Notes: generated by a model from the sequence alone, not told the origin. A DNA stretch of 62,601 bases, filler included, from Stramenopiles sp. TOSAG23-3 (GCA_900128585.1; 7 parts of 7 records of this genome joined end to end with filler, not necessarily neighbours in it), one strand, 5' to 3'; positions 8,870 to 62,601 are shown, numbered from the whole stretch's first letter. Numbers and translations are program-made.

Positions 8870-8969
8870 NNNNNNNNNNNNNNNNNNNNNNNNNNNNNNN
8901 NNNNNNNNNNNNNTTAATTAATTAANNNNNNNNNNNNNNNNNNNNNNNNNNNNNNNNNNNNNNNNNNNN
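8870..8969. other. Artificial contig linker
   Basis: N44-TTAATTAATTAA-N44, giving stops in all six frames. Confidence 0.98.
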
Positions 8970-9588: not shown

Positions 9589-9689
9589 NNNNNNNNNNNN
9601 NNNNNNNNNNNNNNNNNNNNNNNNNNNNNNNNNNNNNNNNNNNNNNNNNNNNNNNNNNNNNNNNNNNNNNNNNNNNNNNNNNNNNNNNN
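9589..9689. other. Scaffold gap (Ns without linker)
   Basis: Run of about 100 N with no TTAATTAATTAA. Confidence 0.9.
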
Positions 9690-17837: not shown

Positions 17838-17937
17838 NNNNNNNNNNNNNNNNNNNNNNNNNNNNNNNNNNNNNNNNNNNNTTAATTAATTAANNNNNNN
17901 NNNNNNNNNNNNNNNNNNNNNNNNNNNNNNNNNNNNN
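17838..17937. other. Artificial contig linker
   Basis: N44-TTAATTAATTAA-N44. Confidence 0.98.
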
Positions 17938-26797: not shown

Positions 26798-26897
26798 NNN
26801 NNNNNNNNNNNNNNNNNNNNNNNNNNNNNNNNNNNNNNNNNTTAATTAATTAANNNNNNNNNNNNNNNNNNNNNNNNNNNNNNNNNNNNNNNNNNNN
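26798..26897. other. Artificial contig linker
   Basis: N44-TTAATTAATTAA-N44. Confidence 0.98.
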
Positions 26898-35753: not shown

Positions 35754-35853
35754 NNNNNNNNNNNNNNNNNNNNNNNNNNNNNNNNNNNNNNNNNNNNTTA
35801 ATTAATTAANNNNNNNNNNNNNNNNNNNNNNNNNNNNNNNNNNNNNNNNNNNN
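35754..35853. other. Artificial contig linker
   Basis: N44-TTAATTAATTAA-N44. Confidence 0.98.
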
Positions 35854-44706: not shown

Positions 44707-44806
44707 NNNNNNNNNNNNNNNNNNNNNNNNNNNNNNNNNNNNNNNNNNNNTTAATTAATTAANNNNNNNNNNNNNNNNNNNNNNNNNNNNNNNNNNNNNN
44801 NNNNNN
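44707..44806. other. Artificial contig linker
   Basis: N44-TTAATTAATTAA-N44. Confidence 0.98.
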
Positions 44807-53655: not shown

Positions 53656-53755
53656 NNNNNNNNNNNNNNNNNNNNNNNNNNNNNNNNNNNNNNNNNNNNT
53701 TAATTAATTAANNNNNNNNNNNNNNNNNNNNNNNNNNNNNNNNNNNNNNNNNNNN
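53656..53755. other. Artificial contig linker
   Basis: N44-TTAATTAATTAA-N44. Confidence 0.98.
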
Positions 53756-53756
53756 T

Positions 53757-54098
53757 GTAGGGAATTGGATAATTGGTTTACCATTAGGCTTTGCATTTGC
53801 ATTCTCCAAAGGACTCTGGCATAGTATTCAGCTAGCAAGTATTACTGGGTATGAAACAGAAAATAAAACGGGAGGATTACTTGGTTTATGGTGGGGTCTT
53901 ATTATTGGATATGCTTTTGTTGGTATTGGTTTTATTGTTATTTTTCTACAAATGAATTGGAAAAAAATAGCTCGTAAAGTAAAGGAATTGAAAATGAATG
54001 AAGAATGCCTTTCTTGTCGTACAGATGATATATCTAGTCATGAAACAAAAAATCTTACTGAGATTAATATAGAACTATCAGATTTTGTAATACAATAG
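53757..54098 (+). CDS. C-terminal fragment of a MATE-family transporter; missed by the ORF track
   Basis: Manual translation gives NWIIGLPLGFAFAF...GLLGLWWGLIIG...MNWKK, matching MATE TM11-12. Confidence 0.8.
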   Translation, partial: VGNWIIGLPLGFAFAFSKGLWHSIQLASITGYETENKTGGLLGLWWGLIIGYAFVGIGFIVIFLQMNWKKIARKVKELKMNEECLSCRTDDISSHETKNLTEINIELSDFVIQ

Positions 54099-54367
54099 AG
54101 ATTAATTCGCCACAACATTAATTATAAAGTATTTTGTATTTTGTGTATTTTGTATTTGTATTTGAATAAATGTTGTTGCCGGGTACCCGTTTTTCGTTCA
54201 GTGCAAAAACAAATTCACAACTGTTGGAACACCGTTTATATACAGAATATCGTAGTAGTATATAGTTGGACATACTAACTAAGTACTTACCAAAGCTAAA
54301 TTATAACGGTATTCGCTATATTGAATATAAACCAGAGAGATAAGAACTATTCAAATATTACAGTATA

Positions 54368-55483
54368 ATGGAATGCCCTCTCCCGCCTTTAAAGTTTGAT
54401 TCTCAGCCAATGAGTGTTTCCTTTGCACCAAATAAAGATTTAGTTGCTGCATCTCTAATTACTGGTGAAGTTAAAGTCTGTAGTTACAGCAGTGAGAGTT
54501 GCAAAGAGCAATTATCATTTAATCAACATACTGGTGCTTGTCGTAGTCTAGCATATTCTGATGATGGGTCTATAATTTTTACTGGTTCATCCGATTGTTC
54601 CGTCGCTGCAACTGACGCAAGTACTGGAAAATGTGTTTGGCGAAAGGAAAAGGCCCACGATTCTGCTATCAATATAGTTTTTTCTTTACCTGAAAATCAT
54701 CAAAATACTCTTGCTACTGGCGATGAAAATGGATGCGTGAAAATATGGGACAATCGCACAAGAGAATGTACACATACGTCTACTATATCAACAGATTATA
54801 TATCAGATATGTGTTATGGTGCAGCTGCAAAGAATCAACTCCTTTACACTTCTGGTGATGGATGCTTGAGTGTTTTTAACTTAAAGAAAGGAAAGGTAGA
54901 ATACCGTTCTGATGATCAGGAAGATGAATTGCTCTCGTTGCAACTTATCAAAAATGGTAAAAAGGTCGTTTGTGGTACTCAAGGTGGAGTTCTTGTAATA
55001 TTTAGCTATGGTGATTGGTCAGATAGATCTGATGGTTTTCCAGGTCACCCACAGTCAATAGAAGCATTATTAAAGATTGATGAGGACACACTTATCACTG
55101 GAAGCAGTGATGGAATTATTCGTGCCGTCAGTGTACAACCAAATAGATTAATTGGAGTGGTTGGTGCTCATGATGATTTTCCTGTAGAACAATTGGAGTT
55201 TTCTCGTGATCAACGCACTATTGCTAGCTGCTCTCATGATAATATTATTAAACTTTGGGATGTTTCTATGTTTTTTGATAAAGAAAGTGATGAAGAAGAT
55301 GATACTATAGTAGCTTCAACAGAAGTAGTCAACAAATCAGCTGATTCTGATTTTGATTCTGATTCTGATTCTGATGCTGGTGTAGGAAAGGGTCGTAAAC
55401 GCATGATGAAAAAGAAACTGAAACCAAAAGACGCAAAGAAACTTCGACCAAATTCCATGGCAGGTTTTTTTGCTGATTTATAA
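54368..55483 (+). CDS. WDR55: WD40 repeat protein 55-like
   Basis: SDDQEDELLS, KNGKKVVCGTQGGVL, FPGHPQSI and TGSSDGIIRAV, with a C-terminal FFADL. Confidence 0.88.
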   Translation: MECPLPPLKFDSQPMSVSFAPNKDLVAASLITGEVKVCSYSSESCKEQLSFNQHTGACRSLAYSDDGSIIFTGSSDCSVAATDASTGKCVWRKEKAHDSAINIVFSLPENHQNTLATGDENGCVKIWDNRTRECTHTSTISTDYISDMCYGAAAKNQLLYTSGDGCLSVFNLKKGKVEYRSDDQEDELLSLQLIKNGKKVVCGTQGGVLVIFSYGDWSDRSDGFPGHPQSIEALLKIDEDTLITGSSDGIIRAVSVQPNRLIGVVGAHDDFPVEQLEFSRDQRTIASCSHDNIIKLWDVSMFFDKESDEEDDTIVASTEVVNKSADSDFDSDSDSDAGVGKGRKRMMKKKLKPKDAKKLRPNSMAGFFADL

Positions 55484-55554
55484 TGGCAAAAAGGTAGTTA
55501 TACATAAACAAAATATCAAATAAATTCTTTTTATATTTATATCCGCATATTTTG

Positions 55555-56889
55555 TTATAAAGTTTGTAATGTTTCAACAAGTCTAACAAATATACTTGAA
55601 CCAATAGGTATTATATTATCATTGAAATCATATTTAGGATGATGTAATGGATATGATGGTTTTTTTTTACTGAAAGATGGACATTCAAATAGTGTTGTAG
55701 CTTCATTTTCTTCTTCATTAGAACCAATCCAAATATAACAACCAGGTCTTTCGTTCAGCATAAATGCAAAATCTTCCGAGGCTGAAGTCGGTGTTGGACT
55801 GATCACTTGTTTAGCACCAACAACAGATGTAGCCACTTTGCATGCATTAATAGAAGATTCTTTATCATTGATAGTTGCAGGATTTCCATTGAGAACTTTT
55901 ATTTTTACATTAGTCCCAAATGAATCAGATATTCCTTTTGAAATATCTTTCATACGTTGAATGAGTAAATTACGAGTTTCTGGTTTGAAACATCGAATAG
56001 TTCCACGAAACTCAACTCTATCAGGAATAATATTAAAAGATCCATCACTACTATCTAATGCTGGTGCATTAAATTGTGTGACAGAAAGTACTGCACCATC
56101 ATCAGGATCAGCATTACGTGAAACAATTGTTTGTAATGCAGTAACAATATGACAGGCAGAAATTAAAGGATCTACTGCAAGATTCGGTATTGCTGCATGT
56201 GAAGACTCGCCACTAACGGAAACAATAAAATTATCTTCTGAACCCATTAAAGGACCAGATTTAATACCAACATGACCAAAAGGAAGTGTTGGCCAATTAT
56301 GGATACCATATATTTGGTCACATGGGAATCTATCAAAAAGATTATCTTTCAACATTAGAGGTGCTCCACTCCCATCTTCAGGAGACATATCCGCTGGCCA
56401 ATGTACACCTTCTTCGTTTGGTTGGAATATAAAGTTAACTGTCCCACGAAAGTTTCGAGTTTCTGCAAGATACTTTGCTGCGCCTAATAACATTGTTGTG
56501 TGACCATCGTGTCCACAAGCATGGTGCACACCTGGGTTTGAAGATATATAGGATGTACCAGTCTCTTCAGAAATGGGCAATGCATCCATATCTGCGCGGA
56601 GACCTATGGAAGAAGTACATTCTTTTCGACCACGTAACGTACCGACAACACCAGTACGTCCAATACCTGATGTAACTTCAATGCCCCATGATTTCAACTT
56701 ACTAGCGACAAGAGATGCAGTATTGTATTCTTCAAAACCAAGTTCTGGCTCACGGTGAAGACCTTGTCGTATCTCTTTAAATTCGTCCTGTTGAATCACT
56801 ATACCTTCCACCAAACCTGATAAATGAGCACAGCGACCACGTAAAAAGCGACTAGATATACGATTACTAAACGACAAAAGAGAAAACAT
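55555..56889 (-). CDS. M20 amidohydrolase (hippurate-hydrolase-like) with a putative mitochondrial presequence
   Basis: HREPELGFEE, LRADMDALP, HACGHDGH, FQPNEEG, SEDF and LHHPKYDFND. The N-terminus is Ser/Arg-rich and lacks acidic residues. Confidence 0.92.
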   Translation of the reverse strand: MFSLLSFSNRISSRFLRGRCAHLSGLVEGIVIQQDEFKEIRQGLHREPELGFEEYNTASLVASKLKSWGIEVTSGIGRTGVVGTLRGRKECTSSIGLRADMDALPISEETGTSYISSNPGVHHACGHDGHTTMLLGAAKYLAETRNFRGTVNFIFQPNEEGVHWPADMSPEDGSGAPLMLKDNLFDRFPCDQIYGIHNWPTLPFGHVGIKSGPLMGSEDNFIVSVSGESSHAAIPNLAVDPLISACHIVTALQTIVSRNADPDDGAVLSVTQFNAPALDSSDGSFNIIPDRVEFRGTIRCFKPETRNLLIQRMKDISKGISDSFGTNVKIKVLNGNPATINDKESSINACKVATSVVGAKQVISPTPTSASEDFAFMLNERPGCYIWIGSNEEENEATTLFECPSFSKKKPSYPLHHPKYDFNDNIIPIGSSIFVRLVETLQTL

Positions 56890-57305
56890 CCCAACCTAAA
56901 TGTAAGAAAAAATAAATATCTGGAGTTACCGAAGGATAACAATTATACGTCCTTTCTGAAAATACATTTCACACCGTGTCGTGTGTGATGTTGAGCCGCT
57001 TGAGTAAAAGTCTATAAGAAAACAAAATGAAACTTTATTATCTGTCCGTGGGTGTGTGGTGTGATACTTTTTCAAAGTTTTTTGGTCACTTGTGACTGGT
57101 CAATATTGAATTGATGGCCAAAAACATCAAAAAATGACAGCAAGATAAGAAAATCCAATCAAAAAAATCAAAAGTTAGGAGGTGGCACTGGTGTTTGGTC
57201 AGAAACTCAGAAACTCAGAGTGTGTTTGTTCGTCATTCAGAATAATAATATTATCAATTGACATAGCTGTGTCCAATTCCGTAATAATCATAATACATAT
57301 TCACG

Positions 57306-58246
57306 ATGGATCAAAAGAATTTAGAAATTTGGGAAGATGCTTCCATTAAGTCTACTCCAAAAATTCGTCGACGTTCGAAACGCTGTCTTGTTGATGTCAA
57401 AAATACACGCGGTGAAGATAAGAAAGGTATGAAGAGTTTGAAAAAGCAACGCAAAAATGAAATGGCTATCATGAATGCAGATAAACTGGAACGCATGCCA
57501 CTGACAGATACATCAAATCCATTATGGCTGTCACCTTTGACACGCGAACCTACAAATAACTCTTCCAGATCAAAAACTGTTCACTCTCTTCCAAAAGAAA
57601 GAGTCGGTCTTTCCAACGAACTACACACAAAACGTTTTTTGAATGTTCCAACAACGAAAACAAATGAACATGTGCCATATGTGGCTGTACATGTTGAAAA
57701 AACACATCGTGTGATATCTAAAACGCATAATTTCCCACCTCCTATGCATAAAAAGACGCATAATTTCCCACCTCCTATGCATAAAAAAACGCATAATTTC
57801 CCACCTCCTATGCATAAAAAAAAGTGTAGTGAAACACAGACTTATACACTAGTTGATAAAACTTCAAGTGCTGATGATGTACACACAGTTGTAGAGACAA
57901 GAAATACTAGTAAAATGTGTGAATCAAGATCAACATTTACTCCACCAATGTATGTTTTATATGAATTTCTAATTTAATTTTTTTTTCATACGAAATTTCG
58001 TACCTAACGATTTTTTTTTGAAATATTTTTCCAAAATACATGTGGACGTTTAAAAGTCGAATAAATACGAGGCCTCGATCGTATGCTCGTGGGGAATCTG
58101 GTTGGATTCCAAGCAAATTTGAAAAAGAAATGTTGACATCAAGTGAGTCAAAAATCGAAACTTCTGCAAGCAAAATAGCTCAGTCGTTAGATTTTAAAGT
58201 CAACTATACTATTGGAATTCCATCTATAATATGTGTAGTAAGTTAA
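57306..58246 (+). CDS. Hypothetical protein; 2 exons (57306-57949, 58042-58246), 282 aa
   Basis: Removing the 92-nt element joins ORFs 57306-57977 and 58040-58246 in frame (FTPPM|WTFKSR). Confidence 0.6.
57720..57821. repeat. 33-bp coding tandem repeat x3 (KTHNFPPPMHK)
   Basis: Seen directly. Confidence 0.95.
57950..58041 (+). mobile_element. Introner-like element / non-canonical intron, copy 1 (GT...AT, or equivalently AT...AC at 57948-58039)
   Basis: AT|GTATGTTTT...TACGAAATTTCGTA (perfect palindrome)-CCTAAC...polyT...AAAATAC|AT. Similar along its length to 61374-61464. Confidence 0.65.
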
Positions 58247-58289
58247 GTATGATAGTTTGTAATGATAACTTTATTTGTGTTTGTAATTA

Positions 58290-58409
58290 TAATTATATTT
58301 GTGTCTGATAATTATAATTATATTTGTGTCTGATAATCATGTTTGTGTCTGATAATTATATTTGTGTCTGATAATTATATTTGTGTCTGATAATTATATT
58401 TGTGTCTGA
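58290..58409. repeat. 19-bp tandem repeat, about 6 copies (TAATTATATTTGTGTCTGA), spanning the hydrolase stop codon
   Basis: Seen directly. Confidence 0.92.
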
Positions 58410-60364
58410 GAAGCTTTAATGATATTTGCTATAGTCTCTGAAGAGTAAATAAAATCACCATGTATACTATTGGGTCTCCAAACAACTTTTACTATCGATG
58501 ACAAATCTTCATTTGACTTATTTTTTATTCTACTCTTGTTTTTATATCCATCTTGTAAATATTCTCGAACATCAGCAGAAGGAACAATATTATCATCTCC
58601 ACCAAGAAAAACTGTTGTTGTTGATGATTTTGTAATTTGTTCATTCATACAATTTGACACAACATTTTTTTGTCTTTTTTGTCTTTTTTGTCTCTCATTA
58701 CCGTTTACTACAGAGTATTGTCTCTGATGTATTTCATAAAGATCCTCTAGAAATAAAACATTCTCAAACCAATCAAATTTATGGGACAAAATAGTTGCTA
58801 ATCGTTTTTCAGTTGTAAAAAAATAATGTGAAAAATATTCATATGTATTTCGAGGTTGTCTAAAAAGTACATTGATACAAACATTGTGATGATACAGTAG
58901 AAAACAGACAGGATCAATAAATACAGCTCGACAAATTCTTTCTGGTTTTGCTTTGATTAACCAGGACATAGGTATTGAACCAAATGAGTGGCCTATTGCA
59001 GATATTTTTTGATTATCATGACCATGTTTCTCAAGCATTGTCAAAACAGCAGACACTAAAGCAGCAGGAGGTAATGCATCACCTTCATCATCATTAGACA
59101 ATCGTAATGAAATCGATGAATTTTCCACTAGAAATACATCTCTTTCAACAACTCCATTATTTACTACATGTAACCCTTTGATAAGTTTTGTATAGATAGA
59201 AAATCCTATACCAAGACCATGAAAGAATATTGCTGGAGAAATTTTTATCTCATTCTTTTCAATATTGTTTTGTGTTTCAGTTGTACCAGCTTTTCTGTAC
59301 CAATAAATCATTTCAAATTCTACATTTGATACATTTTGTACAGCTGTACTTTTTATATCGGGAAGAATAGGAATAGATATCTTAACAGTTTCACGAGTAT
59401 AACCAAGCATTAATTGAAATATCATAGGCTCAATTACATATTGCATCATAAGATGAGAAAAACCATATAAAAATAAAGGTCGAGGTAAAGAATGTATAGC
59501 TTCTATACCATGTCGTATTGGACGTGAATATTTAAGAGGTGAACATGATTTTACTTGAGTTCGTTTATCATTTGTCATTGCTGAAATGATTTGATTATTC
59601 GCAATAGTCTCTGTATTGCAAAACAAGTGTTGTTTGGTCTCTTCAACACTACCAAAATCGATAGAACCAATATTTTCACTACCATTTGCAATACACTCAA
59701 TATCATCTACTACTTTTGATATCGTATTCTGTAATACACTGTCATGTACACAATGGATTCCATTTCTTGAATTACTTCGCCAATCAATTCGTATTTGGAA
59801 CAAAGTCCATGCTATAAATGATTCTATCCCAGAACGTGTAAGGCAGTCATATGATTTTCCTCCAAACCAACCTTCTAACCAAGATCTCATCTTTACAGGT
59901 GTTCCAACTGAAGAAAGCATCTTTTTCCAATATTGCATACTAACACTATATGGAAAACGTGATAATGATGAAAATCTACGAACACCTTTTGTAACATTTT
60001 TGTCCATCAAAGTGTCGTTCAGTTTTCGTTTCCACACCCAACGCTGATACACGAGGTAAAATATACACTCCAGTAAACTAAAACATTTAATGAAGGATGT
60101 AATCCCACTCGGCCATAGATTTTTGAATACATTACGCCGTGATATATTGGTTGTTTTAAATTTATATTTCTTCAACCATAAAACTAATTTGCGGACCCAA
60201 TAGAATGTCGAGAGTGGACCAACACTCTGTAAAATAACAATGACCGATTTCAATACAAAACAAGCAACAGTAGAAGATGACGTGGTTGAAATATTCTTAT
60301 GAATTCCATTATTTCTTTTAGTTACAGGAGACTCAACTCTTGCTCGATCCATAGGTGTCTGCAT
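58394..60364 (-). CDS. Alpha/beta hydrolase-fold protein
   Basis: FFHGLGIG, nucleophile elbow GHSFGS, FIDPVCF, GGDDNIV and a C-terminal HG. Confidence 0.88.
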   Translation of the reverse strand: MQTPMDRARVESPVTKRNNGIHKNISTTSSSTVACFVLKSVIVILQSVGPLSTFYWVRKLVLWLKKYKFKTTNISRRNVFKNLWPSGITSFIKCFSLLECIFYLVYQRWVWKRKLNDTLMDKNVTKGVRRFSSLSRFPYSVSMQYWKKMLSSVGTPVKMRSWLEGWFGGKSYDCLTRSGIESFIAWTLFQIRIDWRSNSRNGIHCVHDSVLQNTISKVVDDIECIANGSENIGSIDFGSVEETKQHLFCNTETIANNQIISAMTNDKRTQVKSCSPLKYSRPIRHGIEAIHSLPRPLFLYGFSHLMMQYVIEPMIFQLMLGYTRETVKISIPILPDIKSTAVQNVSNVEFEMIYWYRKAGTTETQNNIEKNEIKISPAIFFHGLGIGFSIYTKLIKGLHVVNNGVVERDVFLVENSSISLRLSNDDEGDALPPAALVSAVLTMLEKHGHDNQKISAIGHSFGSIPMSWLIKAKPERICRAVFIDPVCFLLYHHNVCINVLFRQPRNTYEYFSHYFFTTEKRLATILSHKFDWFENVLFLEDLYEIHQRQYSVVNGNERQKRQKRQKNVVSNCMNEQITKSSTTTVFLGGDDNIVPSADVREYLQDGYKNKSRIKNKSNEDLSSIVKVVWRPNSIHGDFIYSSETIANIIKASQTQI

Positions 60365-60706
60365 ACTGTTACGTTGATTACTTGTATGATCCACACACCC
60401 GTAGCTTCGAAAACTAGTAGAAGGTAGAAATAGAGGAGTCTCTGTTTTTCAAGTCAGTAAGTCGTACACACAGAAATAATAGTCGTCGTGTAGTAGTCAG
60501 TTGAGAAATTCGATTTTTCGAAACAAAATTGAAAAAATTGTGTTTTTCGTGCGCGTGCAACTTTTTTTAACGGTTGTGAAACGGTTGATCCAATATGTGT
60601 ATATATGGGTGATACTAACTAGTATTTATTGGTATTTTTCTATTCATCAGGGAAATCTTTGAAAGGTTTCGAATTGCGTTTCTACCGGTTCAACTTTCTT
60701 AGAAGC

Positions 60707-62234
60707 ATGAACCGCTATAAGGTTACAAAAAAACTTGGGGATGGCGCGTATGGTTCAGTTCTGAAAGCGGTGAATCATCAGACAGGCGAAGTTGTGGCTA
60801 TTAAAAAAATGAAGAAAAAGTTCTATACATGGGAAGAATGTATGCAATTACGGGAAGTAAAATCTCTTAAAAAATTAAACCATCCTAATATAATCAAACT
60901 AAAAGAAGTAATTCGTGAAAATGATGAGTTATTTTTTGTTTTCGAGTTCATGGAAGATAACTTGTACCAATATGCTAAATCGCGCGATAAGCATTTTCCT
61001 GAGTCTCATATACGGAGTATAATCTACCAAGTACTACAGGGATTAGCTTTTATGCACAAGCATGGTTTTTTTCATCGTGATGTAAAACCTGAAAATCTAT
61101 TAATTAGAGGAGAAACCTGTAAAATTGGTGACTATGGTCTGGCTCGAGAAATTAGATCTCGTCCTCCATTCACAGAATATGTTTCTACACGCTGGTATAG
61201 AGCTCCTGAAGTATTACTACGATCTACTACATATAATTCACCTATTGATCAATGGGCATGTGGTTGTATTCTGGCAGAATTATTTACGTTACGTCCCTTA
61301 TTTCCTGGAACTAGTGAATCTGACCAACTTTATAAGATATGTTCAGTATTTGGATCTCCAACAGAAAAGTCTTGTATGTTTTCAAAATTGAATTTCAAAT
61401 TTTTTTTTTGTACCAAATGTTGTACCTAACATCTTTTTTTTTTTAATATTTTTTCACAATACTTGGTCTGAAGGAATGCAACTAGCTGCAAAAATGAACT
61501 TTCGTTTCCCTCAATTTGTAGCAACTGATTTATCAACAATAATTCCTAATGCCTCACCTGAAGCAATTCAATTAATTGAAGATTTACTTCAGTTGAATCC
61601 AAGTAAAAGACCTTCAGCAAGTGATGCCTTGCAATACCCTTTTTTTATGATGTCAGTAAAAATATCTCGTCCGTTGTTACAAAGTGGAGAGAAGAATCTA
61701 GAAGCAATAAACTCACAATTACTTGATGAAAATAACGATACAATGGAAACCGTAGTAGGACAATGTGAAATAGATAGTAGTATCCGAAATAAAAATGTTA
61801 GTGATAAAAAAAAGATCAATGATAAAAAAATGGAAAAAACAGATAAAAATCTACAAAATAGTTTTGGAAATGATGAAAAAATGAAAAAAAAAGATAAAAA
61901 TCTACAAAATAGTTTTGGAAATGATGATGATTCTTTTAGTCATATTTTTGATGATTGTGATGAGGATGTAAATGCAAGCAGTAATTTTGGAGTTAAATCA
62001 AATGATTCTTATAGTTTTGGTGAATTAAAAGGATCTGCTTTAACAACTACATCAAGTATTAAATCTAGTTCTAAAGACTCATTTAGTTTTGAGAGAAGAA
62101 AAAGTAGTTTCGCCTCAGTTGGATTAAATTCATTTCATAACACTAAGCAAACAAGTGTTGGAACTAGTAAAAATACTTTTGGTTCACTTCAAACAAAATC
62201 ACTAGATAAACAAGGGTTTGGACGACACAGATAG
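60707..62234 (+). CDS. MAK/ICK (RCK-family) kinase; 2 exons (60707-61373, 61465-62234), 478 aa
   Basis: [43 protein letters not shown] and [15 protein letters not shown]. The joined junction reads [24 protein letters not shown]. Confidence 0.9.
61374..61464 (+). mobile_element. Introner-like element / non-canonical intron, copy 2 (GT...TT)
   Basis: TT|GTATGTTTT...GTACCAAATGTTGTACCTAAC...polyT...ACAATAC|TT. Exact removal of 91 nt restores the conserved Trp codon. Confidence 0.72.
61818..61925. repeat. 51-bp in-frame tandem duplication ([11 protein letters not shown] x2)
   Basis: Seen directly. Confidence 0.9.
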
Positions 62235-62415
62235 TATTAATAATAAAATGAATGCCGAAAAAAATATAGTCAATAAAGTAATTTATCAAGTTTTTCAATT
62301 TTGTAGACTTTTGTTATGATATCCACCATGAATTACAAAAGATTCGCTTCATACTGGTCAAATAACTGAATTACCAAAAAGCATCATCTAAATTCCTTCG
62401 GAGACTGATTCAACT

Positions 62416-62601
62416 CTATGCAGACATATCCATTCCACTTTCAACTTGTGGTGCAATGTTTCTAACCGTCTTTGAAATCACTGTTGTCACGCCGCTTTGA
62501 ATACTGAACTTACTTGGTCTATGAACATTAGCGCGTAGCTTGGAGACATCATTTGGCTTTTCGCCTCCTCTGAAGTACTCTTTAGTACCATTACGCCTTA
62601 A
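62416..62601 (-). CDS. C-terminal fragment of an unknown protein
   Basis: Frame open from the window end: LRRNGTKEYFRGG...ESGMDMSA*. Confidence 0.45.
   Translation of the reverse strand, partial: LRRNGTKEYFRGGEKPNDVSKLRANVHRPSKFSIQSGVTTVISKTVRNIAPQVESGMDMSA

Follow-up and report, generated by a model that had tools for sequence, protein, structure and literature searches.

How could two unrelated genes be expressed when each carries, within its coding sequence, a copy of the same insert of about 90 nucleotides (nt), and when that insert has the donor of a spliceosomal intron and no AG at its end? The question arises from a 62,601-nt stretch of DNA of Stramenopiles sp. TOSAG23-3 (here, the window), whose last piece (53756-62601) holds both copies, copy 1 in an orphan gene and copy 2 in a gene for a MAK/ICK-like protein kinase. 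A sequence-only reading had proposed that the inserts are introner-like elements, excised at whatever dinucleotide was duplicated when they inserted. We found that the two copies belong to a far larger family and that homology places the junction of an intact kinase where there is no AG. The explanation that we prefer, on which we are nevertheless evenly divided between acceptance and doubt, is that the elements are transposon-derived spliceosomal introns with a U2-type donor, branch site and T tract, and with a non-AG acceptor at the duplicated dinucleotide that follows ATAC.

The element and its family

The pattern GTATGTTTT-N(60-90)-AATAC has exactly two matches in the window, both on the plus strand (Table 1), where shuffling leads one to expect 0.03; at least two matches were obtained in 0 of 100 shuffles. 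The two copies are about 78% identical by alignment column, blastn aligns them at 80.8% over 73 nt (E 6e-10), and a repeat search pairs them at 82% over 44 nt plus 79% over 24 nt. They share, in order, GTATGTTTT, TGAATTTC(T/A)AATTT, a T run, TAC(G/C)AAAT..GTACCTAAC, a second T run (9 and 11 T), AATATTTTT and the terminal AATAC, and all of the common blocks claimed from the sequence alone are present. A third copy was found in the window neither by blastn, whose next-best match was a 16-19-nt T run (E 0.003), nor by nhmmer, for which the matches listed had E of about 47 or above; the claim that only two copies are visible is confirmed for the window by pattern and by blastn.

Both copies lie sense-oriented within coding sequence, and in each a GTATGT donor is followed by a CTAAC branch-like motif and then by a T tract. 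Exact GTACCTAAC occurs at only two sites in the window, one per copy. There is no AG inside either copy, against 2.1 expected from composition in copy 1 and 1.6 in copy 2, a deficit that is weak on its own. Just 5′ of its branch-like motif, copy 1 also contains a perfect 14-nt palindrome, TACGAAATTTCGTA, at 57989-58002, seen as a minus-strand self-match in blastn; its counterpart in copy 2 (61410-61425) is imperfect, GTAC..GTAC.

The termini are inverted over 4 nt (GTAT/ATAC, imperfectly extendable in copy 1), and direct repeats of 2 nt, or up to 4 nt, flank both copies. Inverted ends and repeats extendable to ATGT and CTTG had been described before, and reading of the sequence bears them out; they are too short, and two copies are too few, to type the transposon superfamily. 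The 4-nt repeats allow five cut registers that give the same product, including GT..AT/GT..TT, AT..AC/TT..AC and, in both copies, TA..TG, and every possible register of both copies is non-GT-AG. From the branch-like A to the 3′ end defined by the repeat there are 34 nt in copy 1 and 35 nt in copy 2, as the sequence-only reading had it. Its further idea that position defines the 3′ site agrees with the similarity of these distances, but a strict ruler would be off by one. The acceptor of copy 1 is unchanged in an independent DNA contig (X2 record 12, 58018-58445), and so is that of copy 2 in another (X4 record 23, 61444-61772). Because the acceptor regions are identical in these contigs, the lack of AG does not stem from faulty assembly of the source; AG at the acceptors in raw reads had been named as a sign against the idea, and DNA contigs of other runs show neither AG nor any difference.

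Four public runs, as assembled contigs, were compared with the last piece: X2, a small DNA run labelled with the same organism as the best-matching run; X4, a seawater metagenome (DNA) from another study; and X8 and X11, two metatranscriptome (RNA) runs from one sample. The numbers of contigs falling on the last piece were 4,708 for X2, 4,183 for X4, 548 for X8 and 543 for X11. Summed depth in the bin of copy 1 reached 747,989 in X2 (neighbouring bins about 7), 36,192 in X4 (0-3), 3,978 in X8 (0.4-2.6) and 3,782 in X11 (0-1.7), and the two bins around copy 2 were also elevated (25,534 and 10,404 in X2; 612 and 464 in X4). In the two DNA and two RNA runs the summed depth of the element is hundreds to about 100,000 times that of its flanks, a quantity that is no copy number and may include relatives. 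Breakpoints of other contigs cluster at the element ends, with joints from 57949 or 61373 and loose ends at 58041-58043, and also at the internal T runs; one loose-end consensus is another copy that starts ATGTATGTTTT and has different internal spacing. The element family is very high-copy and diverse with the same termini, and it is present in the DNA of independent studies and in RNA libraries, so that the repeated family proposed from two copies turns out to be far bigger than those two.

The same breakpoints bear on the target site. The sequence-only reading had described a 2-nt duplication specific to each site, and AT..AT and TT..TT are indeed present; their site-specificity is less certain, since the breakpoints suggest that many members of the family have T in front of GTATG and AT(G) behind ATAC, so that the duplication may be partly constant (NT). 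A scan with the core pattern returned one match in metagenome contigs, two in prokaryote-genome contigs and none in viral contigs, all judged to be chance (one lies in a bacterial-looking open reading frame (ORF) and two in bacterial metagenome-assembled genomes). Two looser patterns gave 60 and 2 loci in viral contigs, by estimate about the chance number, and none of the 65 pattern loci retrieved resembles the element by nhmmer at E<=1e-3.

The junctions in the two genes

Removal of 92 nt from the orphan gene and 91 nt from the kinase gene leaves both reading frames open, as had been claimed. In the kinase, homology locates the junction. Copy 2 splits the Pfam Pkinase profile: positions 1-210 match 5′ of the insert and positions 227-263 match 3′ of it. 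The first part of the protein aligns to CDK2/CDK3 structures in the PDB up to just before the conserved C-lobe Trp, and the second part restarts at that Trp; in a CDK3 fusion chain, for example, part 1 ends at residue 453 and part 2 begins at 453. Of eight aligned homologues, one (an Aureococcus model) is gapped at the insert site; the seven that span it agree in their spacing, in which SPT/PN and three residues precede W, and x-(E/D/S)-G and (M/I)-(K/Q)-L-A follow it. Exact removal of 91 nt gives SPT-EKS-W-SEG-M, which is ungapped against all seven spanning homologues, and the 256 codons 3′ of copy 2 are open and conserved, at 29% guanine plus cytosine (GC).

Use of the first AG downstream of copy 2 would give a TCT/TGA stop, use of the second would delete WSEGMQLA, a segment conserved in 7/7 spanning homologues, and the element itself contains no AG. 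By this comparison an intact kinase would therefore require a non-AG junction, which is the strongest support for the idea of an acceptor without AG. Reading TGA as Trp would make the first AG of copy 2 usable, but we rejected this, as the rest of the piece lacks any in-frame TGA; such a reading would also mean that nine "intronic" bases encode the conserved x-E-G in frame by accident. All five complete genes of the last piece end in TAA (four) or TAG (one), none has an in-frame stop under the standard code, and in about 2,000 codons TGA serves neither as a stop nor as an in-frame sense codon. No spliced protein form of the window's kinase, its own or near-identical, is on record; the best identity among recorded proteins is 69% for those of 154-490 amino acids (aa) and 68% for those of 30-153 aa.

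The orphan gene stays open for 68 codons past its insert, for which the chance is about 0.002-0.004. It has no Pfam family, and its C-terminal 68 aa have no homologue among 1.84 billion representatives, so the junction of copy 1 is not decidable by homology.

Removal from RNA and competing accounts

In the mechanism that we favor, an abundant, non-autonomous mobile element of about 90 nt, resident in an AT-rich, gene-dense marine protist, would insert sense-oriented in a coding exon. The element would supply the donor (GTATGT, yeast-like), the branch-like motif CTAAC and a tract of 9-11 T, and the spliceosome would remove it from the pre-mRNA with the 5′ cut at GTATGT. The 3′ cut would come where the 2-nt duplicate on that side ends (...ATAC-AT| and ...ATAC-TT|, the bar marking the cut), 34-35 nt past the branch A and at a place without AG. 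This second step without AG might be set by distance from the branch, by the ATAC terminus, or by both, and the tolerance of a non-AG end might come from altered recognition of the 3′ site, as reported for tunicates. We infer removal at the RNA level, the spliceosome as its agent, the cut register, the choice of acceptor and the non-AG tolerance. Three things argue for removal: what homology demands of the kinase, how large the family is in a piece with about 75-80% coding sequence, and the fact that both copies are sense-oriented; the spliceosome is suggested as the agent by the conserved GTATGT, CTAAC and T tract. The fuller picture, that a marine and probably stramenopile protist carries thousands of 90-nt introners with canonical U2-type signals whose acceptor is the duplicated target dinucleotide rather than AG, we put forward tentatively and with somewhat more doubt than belief.

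Several observations weigh against this explanation. To our knowledge there is no precedent for a U2-type second step at ..AT| or ..TT|. Although the earlier claim of an AG-less acceptor stands for the kinase by homology, copy 1 does not discriminate, as it is equally well fitted, and equally in frame, by a canonical GT-AG intron of 107 nt at 57950-58056. When paired with the GTATGT donor, the first three AGs 3′ of each copy (58055, 58070 and 58112; 61472, 61484 and 61520) keep the frame in 6/6 cases; the chance of this, taken from the phase of 372 AGs in coding sequences of the last piece, is about 0.003, a post hoc figure. This hints that the AGs are perhaps sometimes used. The presence of in-frame AGs downstream in both genes had been overlooked in the first reading. 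Flanks, orientation and genic context are readable for two copies only.

The RNA contigs point the same way. The sequence-only reading had named retention of the insert in transcripts as a sign against splicing, and two RNA contigs do retain the 5′ junction of copy 2, although not decisively. X11 record 7 (61280-61408) and X8 record 31 (61253-61407) run colinearly from kinase exon 1 to about 35 nt into the element, and both carry a strain single-nucleotide polymorphism (SNP) at 61354 and stop in the element's T run. (Assemblies are broken by repeats at such a point.) Among the best 15 of 124 joints there is none in RNA that skips 91 or 92 nt; the other 109 rank below repeat-driven ones. RNA cover across the last piece is thin, with a depth of 2-5, and also touches the divergent promoter region at 56951-57101, so that DNA carry-over or pre-mRNA may account for the unspliced contigs. 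Relative to flanks, element depth in the RNA runs is about 5-fold below that in DNA run X4, a rough comparison between different samples. This drop falls short of the strong depletion expected for efficiently removed introns.

The same retained junction and the absence of a spliced joint among those best 15, together with the AGs in frame in both genes, favor the account that competes best: that these are insertions like miniature inverted-repeat transposable elements (MITEs) that are not precisely removed, and that transcripts either retain the element or use GTATGT as donor and the nearest AG 3′ of the element as acceptor. It is also in favor of such an account that known introners are described as always using AG acceptors (bioRxiv 10.1101/2020.10.14.339549; PMC11282704). 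The orphan gene would then lose five codons net (MWTFKS to I), and the kinase allele would be truncated or would do without its W-x-E-G segment, as a recent, tolerated or null insertion. Against this stands the kinase itself, in which the first two AGs lead to the stop and to the conserved deletion set out above, TGA is unused as a sense codon, and the 256 codons beyond the insert remain open and conserved. Moreover, the insertion is common to haplotypes with differing SNPs, in one RNA run and one DNA run of other studies, and a dense, very high-copy family left unremoved in a genome that is about 80% coding would be crippling and hardly tolerable. We consider this account unlikely, if well within reason. 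The SNPs between runs in kinase exon 2 (1/6 synonymous, mostly in the low-complexity tail) are too few to show selection.

A less probable account, and one that we doubt strongly, keeps precise removal from RNA and dispenses with the spliceosome: the GUAU/AUAC termini and their flanks would pair, and an endonuclease and ligase, or some other route, would join the exons. A pairing-based route of this kind has been proposed for Amoebophrya introners and for euglenid nonconventional introns. The inverted GTAT/ATAC ends and the direct repeats at the borders suit it, as do the inverted and direct repeats and non-canonical borders of Amoebophrya introners (PMC7789003). RNA folding divides the two copies. 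With its flanks, copy 1 is predicted to pair its termini and exon flanks (minimum free energy -17 kcal/mol, z -2.3; 4/200 shuffles as good), whereas copy 2 with its flanks has no such predicted fold (z +0.7; 149/200 shuffles as good), and the elements without flanks score z -1.5 and +0.5, respectively. On these predictions a shared end-joining hairpin, of the Amoebophrya or euglenid kind, lacks support from the two copies. Amoebophrya has inverted repeats of 8-20 nt, whereas here no more than 4 nt are inverted, with an imperfect extension, and a hairpin route would need none of the GTATGT, CTAAC and T tract that a spliceosome reads.

Elimination at the DNA level, in the manner of ciliate internal eliminated sequences with "pointer" repeats and with the assembled form being germline-like, we can all but set aside: short direct repeats of which removal would leave one copy, and short AT-rich inserts within coding sequence, are what it would predict, but the element-bearing form is found in DNA contigs of independent runs at both 3′ junctions, stops are standard with no in-frame TAA, TAG or TGA, named protein matches are to stramenopiles and not to ciliates, no element-free DNA form is seen among the best 15 of 124 joints, and the splicing-type signals would be left unexplained.

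Known introns, host and consequences

Spliceosomal removal at the duplicated dinucleotide can be set beside published systems. Canonical introners of Micromonas, Aureococcus, Symbiodinium and Polarella are described as always ending in AG (PMC11282704; bioRxiv 10.1101/2020.10.14.339549; PMC12130899). Similar to them, the present elements would be non-autonomous, DNA-transposon-like and intron-creating, the known families having hundreds to thousands of copies, and the scheme proposed here is also theirs, in that the element carries one splice site and the duplicated target, or the flank, gives the other. Of the GT/GC/GA..AG splice sites of introners, the GT donor is present and the AG acceptor is absent at the junction; occurrence at many unrelated loci is seen in two unrelated genes and thousands of contigs. 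In contrast to canonical introners, which are described as persisting only where the target supplies AG, there is no AG here in the element, the duplication or the next base.

In Amoebophrya (Syndiniales) more than 60% of introns are reported to be non-canonical, and a subset are introners with 8-20-nt inverted and 3-5-nt direct repeats over their borders (Farhat et al. 2021, PMC7789003). The likeness lies in short repeated intron-like elements within genes, non-GT-AG borders, inverted termini, no transposase inside, and direct repeats (ATGT and CTTG here, 3-5 nt there) that overlap the borders and make the register ambiguous. Unlike the variable donors described for Amoebophrya, here GTATGT is invariant and canonical and is accompanied by a T tract and by a clear branch-like motif, CTAAC; the inverted repeats are of about 4 nt rather than 8-20 nt, with no shared hairpin predicted. 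The host protein matches here are stramenopile-like, whereas Amoebophrya is an alveolate, and its splicing is reported as validated by RNA sequencing, whereas here the case for removal comes from homology.

MITE-derived introns of Fritillaria borealis are described as beginning with AG and ending with AC or AT from the duplicated target (Henriet et al. 2019, via PMC11282704), and another account links non-AG splicing in tunicates to changes in U2AF and in small nuclear RNA (snRNA) modification (PMC13326754). Shared with Fritillaria are a 3′ end that would come from the duplicated target and is not AG, the ..AC/..AT ends and the inverted termini; removal there is ascribed to a modified U2 spliceosome. 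The elements are nevertheless not of the Fritillaria type, which has a 5′ AG and a constant TAC target, as here there is a GT donor, the duplicated dinucleotide differs (AT, TT) and the preceding exon bases are AAT and CTT in place of exonic TAC. Fritillaria is an animal, and the host here is a protist.

U12-type introns have the donor consensus (A/G)TATCCTT and a branch consensus TCCTTAAC lying 10-15 nt from the 3′ end. One register of copy 1 reads AT..AC, like U12 AT-AC introns, the element starts (A/T)TGTAT, and its ..CCTAAC slightly recalls the U12 branch consensus. The donor GTATGTTTT, a branch-like motif 32-35 nt from the 3′ end, a long T tract and the TT..AC of copy 2 set the elements apart from that type. 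Rfam and transfer-RNA scans of the window gave no match and no snRNA genes, which is uninformative on a U12 spliceosome. The elements likewise differ from ciliate internal eliminated sequences, by the 3′ junctions in DNA contigs, the standard stops and the stramenopile-like matches. Euglenid nonconventional introns, described as having stable end pairing and CAG/CTG at +4-6 / -8-6 (PMC11282704), are also of another type, as the present elements have neither CAG/CTG motifs nor a shared stable fold. No paper on such elements in stramenopiles or single-cell genomes was found in the literature; the Amoebophrya motif tables (PMC7789003 supplements), where similar motifs are possible, lie outside the comparison. 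If real, the present case belongs with the known transposon-derived non-canonical introns and departs from canonical ones solely at the acceptor.

Table 1. Positions of the two element copies, their signals and flanking sites, the interrupted genes and the joins of the window, numbered from the first base of the window.
Feature	Positions	Strand	Remarks
Element copy 1	57950-58039	+	90 nt, GTATGTTTT...AATAC, no internal AG; exact pattern match
Element copy 2	61374-61462	+	89 nt, GTATGTTTT...AATAC, no internal AG; exact pattern match
Donor-like GTATGTTTT, copy 1	57950-57958	+	read in sequence; identical in both copies
Donor-like GTATGTTTT, copy 2	61374-61382	+	read in sequence; identical in both copies
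Branch-site-like GTACCTAAC, copy 1	58000-58008	+	CTAAC; A at 58007
Branch-site-like GTACCTAAC, copy 2	61422-61430	+	A at 61429
T tract, copy 1	58011-58019	+	9 T, 3′ of branch-like motif
T tract, copy 2	61434-61444	+	11 T, 3′ of branch-like motif
Left direct repeat AT, copy 1	57948-57949	+	extends to ATGT 57948-57951; read in sequence
Right direct repeat AT, copy 1	58040-58041	+	extends to ATGT 58040-58043; putative 3′ end of removed stretch
Left direct repeat TT, copy 2	61372-61373	+	extends to CTTG 61371-61374; read in sequence
Right direct repeat TT, copy 2	61463-61464	+	extends to CTTG 61462-61465; putative 3′ end of removed stretch
First AG 3′ of copy 1	58055-58056	+	alternative canonical acceptor, in frame
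First AG 3′ of copy 2	61472-61473	+	use would give in-frame TGA
Second AG 3′ of copy 2	61484-61485	+	in frame; use would delete conserved WSEGMQLA
Orphan gene, interrupted by copy 1	57306-58246	+	ATG 57306 to 57949, resumes 58042 (58057 if AG used), TAA 58244-58246
MAK/ICK-like CMGC protein kinase gene, interrupted by copy 2	60707-62234	+	coding 60707-61373 and 61465-62234; Pkinase 1e-66
Spacers between pieces	8870-8969, 17838-17937, 26798-26897, 35754-35853, 44707-44806, 53656-53755		
Further N run	9589-9689		

The window is no single locus. It consists of seven pieces, each about 8.85 kb long, with N44-TTAATTAATTAA-N44 spacers between them, and neighbouring pieces are not necessarily linked. 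No copy of the element lies in the other 53 kb. The last piece has a GC fraction of 0.34, against 0.42-0.47 in the other six, and its coding ORFs range over 0.29-0.37, against 0.44-0.59 elsewhere; the other pieces encode eukaryotic domains of a different kind (IRS-type PTB, FBO_C, RING, aldo-keto reductase). The last piece and the other six may thus come from different organisms, and the assembly may be a mixture of two, so that any argument from "the same bin" calls for caution.

The genes of the last piece encode a WDR55 protein, an M20 peptidase, the orphan protein with copy 1, a 684-aa alpha/beta-hydrolase-like product and the kinase with copy 2, followed by the end of one further gene, and the two elements are the sole interruptions of these genes. 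Best named matches of the C-terminal part of the kinase are stramenopiles (Aphanomyces, Heterosigma, Aureococcus, Incisomonas and Mallomonas), with which it has a C-terminal FGRH motif in common; WDR55 has its matches, at 44-49%, in oomycetes, brown algae, plants and fungi, and a closer one, at 63%, in a metagenome protein. Judging from these named protein matches, the host of the last piece is a eukaryote and probably a stramenopile, which is a lead and no placement.

Other repeats and variants occur in and between these genes. Three tandem 33-nt repeats (97% matches) in the orphan gene, at 57720-57822, encode KTHNFPPPMHK three times, and the low-complexity C-terminal tail of the kinase contains a 51-nt tandem duplication (2.2 copies, 94%) at 61818-61927. 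A 19/25-nt tandem array at 58260-58409, between the orphan gene and the hydrolase-like gene, varies in length, with one 19-nt unit fewer at 58320 in DNA run X2. In an X4 seawater contig there is an 18-nt insertion at 62349, 3′ of the kinase gene and ahead of the last one. The SNPs between runs indicate several strains of the organism in the sea.

Were the inserts not removed, this would be a compact genome that tolerates massive gene disruption, which would be likewise unusual; were they neither removed nor tolerated, the genes would be lost. If they are removed as we propose, gene callers that require GT-AG would break many genes of this organism, as they do for Amoebophrya. The leading explanation for intron-gain bursts is the introner, and almost every known family can keep an insertion only at targets that give AG (or GT). 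With an acceptor at the duplicated dinucleotide that constraint would be lifted, as inserts would be removable at any target dinucleotide, and the spliceosome would have abandoned the AG rule and retained all other signals of the set. Choice of the 3′ site would then be directly testable via U2AF, Slu7/Prp18/Prp22 and the pairing of first and last nucleotides. This would be a third independent origin of genome-wide non-AG splicing, after Amoebophrya and appendicularians, and the cleanest case, in which only the acceptor deviates.

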